This document shows positions 7,576 to 28,560 of a stretch of DNA of 64,000 nucleotides, piece by piece; position 1 is the stretch's first letter, and each line of letters opens with the position of its first letter. The DNA is from Eledone cirrhosa (Eukaryota): the NCBI GenBank assembly GCA_964016885.1, contig OZ024741.1, forward strand, positions 27,714,001 to 27,778,000, given 5' to 3'. A program made the position numbers and the translations under genes. The notes under the pieces are model-generated. The model ran no database searches. It was not told where the DNA came from and saw only the letters and a program-made list of their open reading frames with translations.

Positions 7576-7603
<28 letters not shown>

Positions 7604-7941
7604 ACGTTTAACGTCCGTGTTCCACGCTTGCATGGGTTTGGACGGGGGTAGTCCCACTTGAGGCAAGAGTGATTGTCTTGCTCGCATAGGACTGTCTGGC
7701 AGGTTTTCTACAGTTGGATGCCCTTCCTAACACCAACCACATTTACAGTGTGGGTCTGGGAGGTTTTTACCGTGTTGCCTACACGGCCACATTACAGCGT
7801 GGACTGTGTGTTTTTTTTGTCGTGACACCTACACGATCTCATTTGTTTCGGCCCGGATGGCGCGGCACCAACATAACTTTACATAGGACGGGGTGGTGTG
7901 GATGGGGTGGGGGTGGTGGTGGTGGGACGGGGTGTATTTTG

Positions 7942-10900
7942 TTAGAGATGCCTACTGGCAAGGCGGGTCTTCTCTGTTACTGAGTACCGCCAAAGGTCTC
8001 GGTCCAGTGACATTGTCTTGGAGAGGTGTAAGTGTGTGAGGTCGGAGTTTATCAGCTCGTCCCAGGTTTTTCTAGGTCTGCCTATTCCGTGGCTACCGTC
8101 TATCTTTATTGCCCTGCACTTTGTTATACAGCTATCGACTTTCATGCGCATCACGTGTCCATACCAACGTAGCCTTCTCTCGAGTAAACAACATCTGATC
8201 CCTCTTATCTCTAATTTTTTCCTTAGTTCGTTTATGCTTTGCCGTTCACGTATATTACTGTTACACATCCAGCGGAGCATGCAAGCTTCGTTCCTCTCTA
8301 GTCTGCGTATATCCTCTGCACACAATGCCCAGGTCTCACTGCCATGCAACATTGCTGTTCGTATGCAGGCATCGTACAACCTGCCTTTCATTTTTAGGGA
8401 GAACCCTTTAGCAGCTAATAGTGGTATAAGCTCTCTGAACTTTTTCCAACCAGTTCTGACTCTAGCTACAGTACTTTCAGAGCACCCTCCCCCACTGCTG
8501 ATTTTATCGCCCAGGTAACGGAAGCTGTCCACTATTTCTATAGAACCCTCTGCGCAATTGAAAGAGCTAGTATTGTGTGGGCACTTGCTGCTACTTATTG
8601 CACCAGAACACCGGCCACATGTAAAATCTATGTTCTTAGTTAGCTTACCTGTGATCCCACTACATCTTTTATGCACCCATACTTTGCATTTAGGACACAA
8701 AATGGAGTTTCTACCTACGCCTTTCCTACACACCGAGCACGACCATTTCCCAGAAGGGACCGCCGCCTTGTTTTCTTTCCTACAAACTAGAACTTTGGTC
8801 TTAGCCAGGTTAATTTTAAGTCCTTTTGACTCTAGGCCGTGCTTCCATGTTTGGAATTTCTTCTCTAGCTCGGCCATTGATTCCGCTATGAGTGTCAGGT
8901 CGTCTGCGTATAGGAGTTCCCATGGGCAGCCTGTCTTGAACTCCTCTGTTATAGCCTGAAGGGCAATAATAAATAAATAGTAGGGGGCTGAGAACAGAGC
9001 CCTGATGGACGCCAACTTTTACGCTAAACTCTTCACTATATTCGTTGTTAATTCTAACCTTGCTGACTGTTTCTTTATACATGGCTTGTATAGCCCTCAC
9101 AAGCCATTCGTCAACGCCTAGTTTTCTAAGAGCCCACCAGATAATGGAGCGGGGGACTCTGTCGAAGGCTTTCTCCAAGTCGACAAAAGCTAAGTAGAGG
9201 GGTTTACCTTTAGCTAGGTACTTCTCCTGTAGTTGTCGTACTATGAAAAGAGCGTCTGTGGTACTTTTGCCTGACACAAACCCGAACTGCATTTCATCTA
9301 GGTCAATTCTCTCTCTGATTAATTGCGCTATTACTTTTTCTGTGACCTTCATGACCTGGTCGATTAATTTAATGCCTCTATAGTTACTCCTATCTAGGGC
9401 GTCTCCTTTACCCTTATAACAGTTAACGATGATGCTGCTATGCCAGTCCTTCGGAACAACCCCATTCTGTACGACTTGGTTAACTATGCGGGTGACCATG
9501 GTGTGTCCCACCGTGCCAGATGCCTTCAGCATCTCAGCAACTATTTCCGAAGGCCCAGCCGCCTTACCTGTCTTCATATCCTTGATTGCCTTACTTATTA
9601 TACTCCCCTCGACTAACACTGCTGGTCCCTCTATTGGGTCGACATGGGGGAGACTGTCTTTCTCCCATTTATTCTCCTCATTTAGTAGCCTTTCATAGTG
9701 ACACTTCCAAGCTGCCTTCTTATCGGTGTCGGTGATGGCAAGTATGCCATCATCGTTAAGTACACACTTCTCCCCGACAATATCACGGTTTTCCTTGACG
9801 CATTGCCTAGCAATCCTGAACACCTCACGTTTTTGGTCATCGCGTTGTAGGACATGCTTGAACTTTCTTTCCTCAGCTTCCCTTCTTGCTAAGTACACTT
9901 CTCTCCTAGCTTCCCTCCTGGCCACTTGATAGTCTACTCTACTTCCCCCATCCCGCCATACTTTCCAAGCCTGCTTTTTGGCCTTAATTGACTCCTCCAC
10001 CTTACTGTTCCACCACCATGTTACTCTCCTCCTGCCTACAGGCCTGCTCCAGCCACAGACTTCGTCTGTGGCCAACAGCAGGTTTGCTTTCAGAAATTCC
10101 CACTGTCCCTCTATATTGTCCGACTCTAAGTGTTCTTCCTTACTGTCGAAAGCATCAAGTAATATGTTTTGAAATTTATTTTTGGCTGTGGGGTCCTTTA
10201 GCTTCCATATTTTTCTCCTGAGGATAGTCCTCTTCTGCTGTCGAGTACGTCTCGACCTGACTATGAGGTCGCTAATTATCAGTCTATGTTGGGAGGTGCA
10301 TTCTTCATGGGGGAGGGATTTAGTGTTTACAACAGACACTCTGTCACGTCTTCTGGTAAGGATATAATCTACCTGGCTTGTGTGTTCCCCGGATCTATAG
10401 GTGATCAGGTGATTGTCACGTTTTTTGAAGTTAGTGTTACAGATAGTTAGGTTATTTGCATCACAGAATTCCAGGATTCTGGAGCCTTCCTCATTTCTAG
10501 TACCAAACCCATAGCCTCCATGGATTTTGTCGTAGCCGTCACAATGTTGCCCAACGTGACCATTTAGGTCGCCTGCAATAATTATATAGTCACTGTCAGA
10601 TATTTGGGAGGTAGTGAGCATCAGTGTCTCATAGAATCTGTCTTTTATAGTGCCGGGCAGTCCGGATTGGGGTGCATACGCAGATATTACTGTCACCGTA
10701 GTTCTATTGAGGACAAGTCGTATTTTAATTATTCTGTCGTTCACTCTATTTACGTCTATTATCTTATCCGCCCACTTTTCTGCTACCATGATTCCTACTC
10801 CACCCAGCCCATCGTCGTTTCCCACCCAGAAAAGCTTATAACATCGTTTTTTACCCTCAATGAATCTAGCAGACCCACCCCTCCACCTGGTCTCTTGAAT

Positions 10901-11128
10901 ACAACAAACATCGACCTCCTTACGTTCAAGCATTTCTACAACCTCGTTAGCGCGCCCCTTGAGGGTGCCTACATTTATGGTACCAACACTGAAGTTTTGG
11001 ATCGCGTTTGGAGGGTGGGGGTGGTGTGGGGCGGGGGGAGATGGGGTTATGTTAGCCATCCGCGGGCGAAACAAAGAAGAGTGCTCGCATTCTCGTCCAC
11101 GAGGTGAATTTGACTTTAGCATTGGCAT
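7942..11128 (-). pseudogene. RTE polyprotein (APE endonuclease, RT, PHD-like Cys/His insert) with one frameshift
   Basis: [57 protein letters not shown]. Broken by a 4-bp AATA duplication near 8971 compared with copy C. Confidence 0.93.
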
Positions 11129-11413
11129 TTTCGCTCTGAGCGTCCAGATTTTTCTCTCCCCTCCACTCTCCAGGATTCCGCAGTCCGTCCATCCATCCAT
11201 CCATCATATATCGAAGGCAACCGTGCAAGCGATAGTATAGGCCTCTGGCTTATGATTGGTCCGCGTAATAATAATAATGGTGATGCGTGTGGGGGGGGGG
11301 GGGTCTCTGGCTTATAGTAATAATGGTGATGCGTGTGGGGGGGGTCTCTGGCTTATGATTGGTCCACGTATTAAGAATGGTGGTGTGTGGGGGCGGGTGG
11401 GAGGGATGTGGGG

Positions 11414-11694
11414 TAGCTAGCTGGAAGGTTATGAATGATTACCAGCGAGTAACAAAAAGCAAAACTGCAAGATTTGTTCTGTTCAATACGACAAAAACAC
11501 CGTATTTAAACCTTAATAAATAACAAAAAATACAGATTTCGGATTTTGCGGGATTGGATGTTTGTACGAAATTGTGGTGTGTGGAGGAGATAGGAAAAAC
11601 GTGAACGTTACGATTACATGGTTACACCGTAGTAGGGGTAGTTGAAGCAGCAATTGTTTGGCGAAAGTGAATAAACATGAACGGGAATTTATCT

Positions 11695-11725
<31 letters not shown>

Positions 11726-26993: not shown

Positions 26994-27024
<31 letters not shown>

Positions 27025-27630
27025 AGCTAAGAGAGAGAGAGAGAGAGTGGGAAGGGGGAGAGAGAGAGAGAGAGAGTGGCTGACCGCAACCCCTCGTGAA
27101 GAAAATGGTGGGTGAAGGGTGTATGAGCGGGATTTTTGACTTTCGAGGTAGCATGATATATATATTTAAAGTAAATTATAAGAAGTAGAATGGAAAGGAT
27201 TTTGTTGTTTTTTGTTTTTTTGTTTGAGAATACGATAGAATTAGGGAATTGGAGGATACGATAGAATTAAGAATGGGAAGGATTTTGTTTTTTTGTTTGG
27301 GAATACGATGGAATTAAGGAATTTAAGGAATTGGAGAATACGATAGAATTAGCTAGCTGGAAGGTTATGAATGTTTACCAGCGAGTAACAAAAAGCAAAA
27401 CTGCAAGATTTGTTCTGTTCAATACGACAAAAACACCGTATTTAAACCTTAATAAATAACAAAAAATACAGATTTCGGATTTTGCGGGATTGGATGTTTG
27501 TACGAAATTGTGGTGTGTGGAGGAGATAGGAAAAACGTGAACGTTACGATTACATGGTTACACCGTAGTAGGGGTAGTTGAAGCAGCAATTGTTTGGCGA
27601 ATGTGAATAAACATGAACGGGAATTTATCT

Positions 27631-27661
<31 letters not shown>

Positions 27662-28267
27662 AGCTAAGAGAGAGAGAGAGAGAGTGGGAAGGGGGAGAGA
27701 GAGAGAGAGAGAGTGGCTGACCGCAACCCCTCGTGAAGAAAATGGTGGGTGAAGGGTGTATGAGCGGGATTTTTGACTTTCGAGGTAGCATGATATATAT
27801 ATTTAAAGTAAATTATAAGAAGTAGAATGGAAAGGATTTTGTTGTTTTTTGTTTTTTTGTTTGAGAATACGATAGAATTAGGGAATTGGAGGATACGATA
27901 GAATTAAGAATGGGAAGGATTTTGTTTTTTTGTTTGGGAATACGATGGAATTAAGGAATTTAAGGAATTGGAGAATACGATAGAATTGGCTAGCTGGAAG
28001 GTTATGAATGTTTACCAGCGAGTAACAAAAAGCAAAACTGCAAGATTTGTTCTGTTCAATACGACAAAAACACCGTATTTAAACCTTAATAAATAACAAA
28101 AAATACAGATTTCGGATTTTGCGGGATTGGATGTTTGTACGAAATTGTGGTGTGTGGAGGAGATAGGAAAAACGTGAACGTTACGATTACATGGTTACAC
28201 CGTAGTAGGGGTAGTTGAAGCAGCAATTGTTTGGCGAAAGTGAATAAACATGAACGGGAATTTATCT

Positions 28268-28298
<31 letters not shown>

Positions 28299-28560
28299 AG
28301 CTAAGAGAGAGAGAGAGAGAGTGGGAAGGGGGAGAGAGAGAGAGAGAGAGTGGCTGACCGCAACCCCTCGTGAAGAAAATGGTGGGTGAAGGGTGTATGA
28401 GCGGGATTTTTGACTTTCGAGGTAGCATGATATATATATTTAAAGTAAATTATAAGAAGTAGAATGGAAAGGATTTTGTTGTTTTTTGTTTTTTTGTTTG
28501 AGAATACGATAGAATTAGGGAATTGGAGGATACGATAGAATTAGGAATGGGAAGGATTTT
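11414..28560 (-). repeat. Tandem array of ~637-bp units, ~26.9 copies, nearly identical
   Basis: gctagctggaaggttatgaatg recurs 27 times (about 11415, 12053, 12691 ... 27352, 27989); the last unit is truncated at 28560. Confidence 0.98.
11662..11700 (-). promoter_or_regulatory. Putative TATA + Inr core promoter in the first monomer, repeated in every unit
   Basis: Minus strand TATAAGA (T at 11698) lies 30 nt upstream of the A in TTCACTT (11668); (CT)n and (CA)n tracts upstream. Confidence 0.55.

Follow-up and report, generated by a model that had tools for sequence, protein, structure and literature searches.

A tandem array of 637 bp units at the 5' end of a young RTE-type LINE in Eledone cirrhosa

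Organization of the locus

The DNA analysed here, which we refer to as the window, is a stretch of 64,000 nucleotides from the Eledone cirrhosa genome (assembly GCA_964016885.1, contig OZ024741.1, positions 27,714,001 to 27,778,000 of the forward strand), and it contains a block of about 21 kb, an RTE element on the minus strand, that interrupts a copy of a CR1-like long interspersed nuclear element (LINE). Read along the minus strand, the block consists of 27 tandem units, a unique segment of 213 bp, an open reading frame (ORF) with APE endonuclease, reverse transcriptase (RT) and PHD finger domains, a 3' untranslated region (UTR) and a (GAT)n tail. Inspection of the junction sequences places the insert at 7576-28558 plus one TTC, and this trinucleotide (GAA on the element's minus strand) is present at both 7573-7575 and 28559-28561; the initial annotation, which described one block of this size splitting a CR1 with TTC at either junction, agrees to within one base. 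At each end the GAA has bases in common with the element itself, GA with the tail and AA with the unit, and a 3 bp duplication is thus indistinguishable from microhomology. Sister copies of the RTE element lie within TA-type microsatellites in 37 of 59 instances, where a target-site duplication is unreadable.

The interrupted element is represented on the minus strand by a 3' part at 6868-7575, which is 84-95% alike to five paralogues that span the insertion point, and a 5' part at 28562-28796, which is 96% alike to five paralogues; both halves match single paralogues, at 84-97%. All 11 of the paralogues are uninterrupted across the insertion point, four with the exact sequence GAAGCAC and most of the others with GAGGCAC. 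The host element is labelled CR1-like from its motifs, and Pfam gave no match in either of the two host fragments.

Within the block, all of whose parts lie on the minus strand, the tail (7576-7603) was delimited with a tandem repeat finder and has counterparts of the same (GAT)n microsatellite type in sister copies, and the 3'UTR (7604-7941) lies between this tail and the ORF stop. The single ORF (7942-11200), whose domains were assigned by profile search, is broken in the window copy by a private 4 bp insertion near 8968, while sister copy L032 has one intact ORF of 1084 aa and no ORF1; an open frame of at least 1080 aa is present in 49 of 79 full RTE bodies. The structural features of RTE-clade LINEs are therefore present, namely a single ORF with APE and RT, the absence of ORF1 and a microsatellite tail, albeit that searches for homologues and against the PDB provided no clade label for the RT, the 120 listed of 159 homologues carrying no clade names. 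The PHD finger follows the RT core (7945-9018, minus strand) and also occurs in many of those 120 listed homologues.

Between the ORF and the array is the unique 5'UTR segment (11201-11413), which includes two copies of a 46 bp repeat. The array itself (11414-28558) contains 26 full units of 634-643 bp and, at its 5' end, a partial unit of 569 bp, matching the roughly 27 units of 637 bp, the last cut mid-unit, that had been noted initially. Its units are 98.9-100% identical to one reference unit and fall into 15 distinct sequences, with nine units being identical. A ribozyme or rolling-circle origin of the array was considered and rejected for want of support from Rfam, a scan of 10900-13400 at E<=10 against its curated families having yielded no ribozyme and one chance microRNA match.

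Attachment of the unit to the LINE family

The 637 bp unit is repeated in tandem as the 5' monomer of a young family of RTE-type LINEs, and is carried along by its copies. A similarity search of the 3.0 Gb assembly with the unit gave 528 candidates, of which 37 loci were scored, and in all 37 the last unit is followed directly on its 3' side by an RTE body that is 98-100% alike, one of these loci being interrupted by the end of a contig. An exact 29-base unit motif occurs 240 times genome-wide, and 21 further loci among its first 100 listed matches likewise all have the RTE body, such that the body lies directly downstream in 58 of 58 loci chosen by the unit alone. A search with the exact unit-body junction contributed 19 additional loci, for 65 in all. 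Altogether 231 of the 240 motif copies were placed, in 69 loci that are all RTE-attached, with nine not located, and no free-standing satellite form of the unit was seen among them. The initial annotation was thus right to assign the array to the LINE, and the RTE-independent satellite for which it had allowed is not the case.

The association extends to more diverged copies. A motif in the 5'UTR has 496 copies genome-wide, and among the first 20 of these that were new, a homologous unit lies upstream in 17 and the remaining three are truncated before the unit, which also answers the question of whether other copies of the subfamily lack it. Units at these copies are mostly 70-88% alike and bodies 93-97% alike, indicating faster evolution of the unit than of the body. 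The window contains a second RTE copy (29350-34243, minus strand), which has a body about 94% alike and carries 1.8 copies of a distantly homologous 549 bp unit at 33252-34243; its local alignment score is 94, against 41+/-6 (maximum 60) for 200 shuffles, and the block TATAAGATAAA..TCAC..TCGCCA is preserved within it. A motif from this second, diverged unit has matches in the assembly only in the window. The older copies with diverged units, together with the far more diverged homologue in the second copy, show that the architecture is old in the family.

Variants of the unit are co-inherited with single-nucleotide polymorphisms (SNPs) of the body, and units therefore co-evolve with subfamilies: a 7 bp unit insertion is linked to one body SNP (28/28 carriers versus 3/41 non-carriers; p=3e-16), and a 539 bp form of the unit to another (8/8 versus 2/40). 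The family with long arrays is young, as seen from the 0-5 private body SNPs in each long-array copy and the intact frames in 49/79 bodies. The array, regarded initially as a feature of this locus, is real at the window but is not a one-off, since three other loci have 18, 20 and at least 24 units; and the suggestion of satellite birth was overstated, since no array detached from the LINE was seen and older copies have short arrays.

A candidate promoter in the unit

In every unit the TATA-like sequence TATAAG precedes the A of an initiator-like TCACTTT by 30 nt (11664-11698, minus strand, in the body-adjacent unit), and 30 nt is the canonical spacing of a TATA box and initiator. Diverged units retain this block, among them the second unit type of the window. 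From this motif and by analogy with other elements, the unit is likely to be the element's promoter. Against such a role, two diverged copies have a much shorter spacing between TATA and initiator. Of 41 5' ends outside microsatellite zones, seven lie at unit positions 388-407, a cluster with p=0.002 for that interval that is not significant once the choice of the interval is corrected for (p=0.15). Locus L107 (G000:C7, near 21686740) begins with the initiator-like A and has its first 21 bases in triplicate, as would be expected had RT copied the RNA 5' end more than once.

Lengths of the arrays

The number of units per element ranges from less than one to 27. Among 64 junction loci the median array length is 0.77 kb, 17 arrays reach 2 kb, and the four longest are 9.4, 12.4, at least 16 and 17.1 kb; a single exponential fails to fit these lengths (p=3e-4). 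The 5' ends were compared at 80 of 98 loci (15 with uncertain ends and three without a unit being left out) and are spread over the whole length of the unit, accumulating at TA and A runs in agreement with the usual target, the TA-type microsatellites described above. With a rough truncation rate of about 0.5 per kb, derived from body motif counts that fall from 2566 to 496, the numbers of young copies seen and expected are 17 and 15.4 at 2 kb, 9 and 5.7 at 4 kb, 4 and 0.46 at 9 kb, and 2 and 0.014 at 16 kb. Arrays of up to about 6 kb thus fit ordinary 5' truncation of multi-unit transcripts; multi-unit RNA would be copied routinely, and the extreme arrays appear to need something more.

Several other arrays are of note for their structure. 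L062-L063 (G000:C4:366774037-366780202) is a 23-unit array in which 541 bp and 144 bp forms are irregularly mixed, next to a body with one private SNP. L109 together with L134 (G000:C12) has at least 24 units of 628 bp, a count that is a lower bound since the array runs into a stretch of N. L121 with L136 (G000:C1, 44326000-44332000) is an older copy whose array of about 6 kb combines full units with 247 bp subunits that start beside the initiator-like site. L060 and L061 (G000:C5, 30 kb apart) are one insertion with the same flanks present twice, either a local or an assembly duplication.

Probable growth of the arrays in place

The origin of the long arrays was examined through the distribution of SNPs among units; microsatellite and homopolymer zones were masked in these counts, and the body alignments left out L061 (as the duplicate of L060) and L067 (at a contig end), with one comparison also leaving out L072. 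In the window array, three SNPs are present in 2, 3 and 2 units respectively and are absent from all others of the 98 loci examined, and units 1 and 2 recur as units 3 and 4, forming a duplicated dimer. The two-SNP haplotype of the window body has a single occurrence in the assembly. The (AC)n allele of the window units was discarded as a private marker, being present also in L109. The 17 arrays of at least 2 kb have between them 19 private single-unit SNPs, six private multi-unit SNPs and two that are fixed array-wide. At L109 two private SNPs are fixed in all 23 scored units beside only two private body SNPs, L042 has a 47 bp deletion in all nine of its full units, and L091 contains a repeated block of six units. 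L047 and L052, which belong to one subfamily, both begin near the initiator-like site and have two rare junction types in common, but have 9 and 18 units respectively with these junction types in different order. Units have thus been duplicated at the DNA level within the time taken to acquire a few SNPs, and the window copy was probably inserted with several units and then grew in place to 27 by such duplication, as is likely for the other longest arrays too. Parsimony favours growth at the locus itself over growth in a source since lost, the body haplotype having no second copy.

A number of observations weigh against growth in place. The density of private single-unit SNPs in the arrays is 0.27 per kb (19 SNPs) and that of private SNPs in the body 0.41 per kb (25 SNPs), a difference without significance (p=0.23), and the dating of array against body by SNP rates was accordingly abandoned. 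Arrays of at least 2 kb are found in 17 of 42 young junction loci and none of 19 older ones (p=6e-4), a pattern as compatible with long insertions that later shrank as with growth, although L121 is one older copy with a long array. The truncation rate is also imprecise, as a mid-ORF motif (2893 copies) outnumbers the 3'UTR motif, meaning that the motifs differ in subfamily breadth, and the duplications could have occurred in source copies that are not in the assembly. In-place expansion, which the initial annotation preferred, is favoured by the private multi-unit SNPs, but the SNP rates and the restriction of long arrays to young junction copies keep it short of proof.

The same age pattern would fit reverse transcription of the whole 21 kb block at once, as a single complementary DNA (cDNA), from a source with a long and internally varied array, with arrays shrinking later as they age, and the SNP rates do not show the array to be younger than the body; multi-unit copying is moreover real, to judge from the junction types common to L047 and L052. 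We nonetheless consider a single long cDNA unlikely. The window body haplotype and the three multi-unit SNPs have neither parent nor sibling, and of 12 locus-characteristic unit SNPs sought in 98 loci, ten are confined to a single locus, one to a duplicated pair and one to three loci, such that each long array would require a lost source of its own. Arrays of 16 kb or more have also been seen twice where a small fraction of one was expected.

It is quite improbable that the array arose in the course of insertion, with RT returning again and again to an earlier point of a short multi-unit RNA. The triplicated start of L107 at the initiator-like A and the position of the L121 subunits next to the initiator-like site could be read in this way, and a second-strand-priming model exists for mouse monomers (in the accessible part of PMC6454616), but DNA-level slippage at short microhomologies could also account for both loci, and SNPs found in some but not all units must pre-exist in the template, of which there is no example in the assembly. 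Least credible of all is that assembly error accounts for the length of the array, or that an independent satellite adjoins the LINE. In favour of this, no listed piece from four read runs compared with 6500-12040 spans that stretch (repeats swamp the comparison), the similar L109 array ends at a run of N, and single-base homopolymer differences may be read errors. Against it, substitutions distinguish the units and follow a structured order along the array, the unit types of other long arrays are specific to their loci, and every unit-chosen locus is RTE-attached. The true number of units may nonetheless differ somewhat from 27. In run X1 the depth of contigs of exact unit sequence is about 1000-1200, compared with 4 for one contig of the flank, which is of the order of 240 units, but depth is not copy number and we do not count this as evidence. 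In run X4, of unrecorded kind, contig depth within 11310-12040 is 90-730 over the unit and 10-56 over the adjacent 5'UTR and ORF start, the reverse of X1.

Proposed mechanism

Growth of the window array in place by DNA-level duplication can be set within a wider scheme. If the 637 bp unit serves as the promoter, transcription would begin inside a unit, and a new copy would keep whole downstream units as promoters. Reverse transcription of the multi-unit RNA with random stops could then generate arrays of up to about 6 kb, and unequal exchange or slippage between near-identical units may lengthen, reshuffle or collapse them. More tentatively, and as one possibility rather than the expected one, this RTE LINE may have independently evolved a magazine of TATA-initiator promoters, in which the location of the TATA box upstream of the start would cost the element part of one unit at each round of retrotransposition, and the lineage would survive only through DNA-level refilling, at times to 17 kb, with RT copying RNAs of at least 10 kb.

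Other features of the window

Two more RTE copies in opposite orientation lie at 39000-47400, with 0.7-1.1 kb of TA-type microsatellite between them and on either side. The tandem repeat finder also reported a 2.2 kb array with a 56 bp unit and higher-order variants (50525-52767) and a 24 bp unit present in 34 copies (55292-56085). An ORF on the plus strand (35036-35722) resembles a Tc1/mariner-type transposase and may be a fragment of one.

Comparison with known systems

Satellites derived from LINE UTRs, and arrays internal to elements, are known in general, as in the 3'UTR of Ogre LTR elements and in Helitrons and Helentrons (PMC12628747; see also PMC7004042). The arrays described here resemble such transposon-born satellites in that a repeat internal to an element has been amplified to multi-kilobase length and dispersed by the element, but differ in that no array has left the element, there being about 240 units in all and none found free-standing. 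A LINE that seeds multi-kilobase satellite-like arrays is of practical interest too, as repeat annotators would split it into a 'satellite' and a 'LINE'. In Drosophila, HeT-A elements at telomeres obtain their promoter from the 3' end of the upstream element. The provision of an upstream promoter by a neighbouring repeat is a likeness by analogy only, and the window element differs in repeating a dedicated 5' unit.

RTE-clade LINEs have one APE and RT ORF of about 1100 aa, a microsatellite tail and frequent 5' truncation (PMC2887409, PMC6007223 and PMC9115989, as far as their accessible text extends), and the Eledone element matches RTE-1, BovB, the lepidopteran RTEs and octopus RTE-2_OV in ORF layout, tail and truncation; the 3 bp at its junctions, whether duplication or microhomology, compare with target-site duplications of 6-15 bp reported for them. 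The accessible text of PMC2887409 and PMC6007223 describes no 5' array in RTE LINEs, and in that of the octopus papers (PMC9115989 and PMC13282606) such an array is undescribed and the word 'monomer' absent, as is 'tandem' from PMC9115989. We found no RTE precedent for a 5' monomer array in the literature, most subscription papers, supplements and the Repbase and Dfam collections being outside the scope of the search, and a curated entry may exist.

The closest parallel is with L1Md elements of the mouse, whose promoters consist of tandem monomers with a mean number of 2.7-3.1 and a record of 50, the latter ascribed to unequal crossing-over (PMC6454616, accessible text); the initial annotation had rightly named rodent L1 as the established case of tandem 5' monomers. 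As in L1Md types A, Gf and Tf, the tandem 5' units of the Eledone element vary in number and the 5'-most of them is truncated, the ORF is preceded by a unique segment, unit subtypes follow the subfamilies, and very long arrays occur but are rare. It differs in being a single-ORF RTE-type element with a (GAT)n tail, whereas L1 has ORF1 and ORF2 and a poly-A tail; in a unit of about 637 bp rather than about 200 bp, with arrays of up to 17 kb; and in an AT-rich unit with a TATA-like and initiator-like pair, for which the promoter role is predicted, in place of a YY1 site. The element thus works like an L1 monomer array, but is not an L1. For mouse L1, PMC6454616 describes as unresolved how the promoter survives a replication that truncates the element and how the arrays are renewed. 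The Eledone family provides a second such case, independent of the first and outside L1; with its large units, arrays marked by SNPs and about 65 young loci that are nearly identical, it allows the competing models to be tested locus by locus. The design as such is known, and what is new in this variation is that a 5' array like that of the L1 monomers belongs to an RTE-type LINE and that both its units and the arrays are unusually large.

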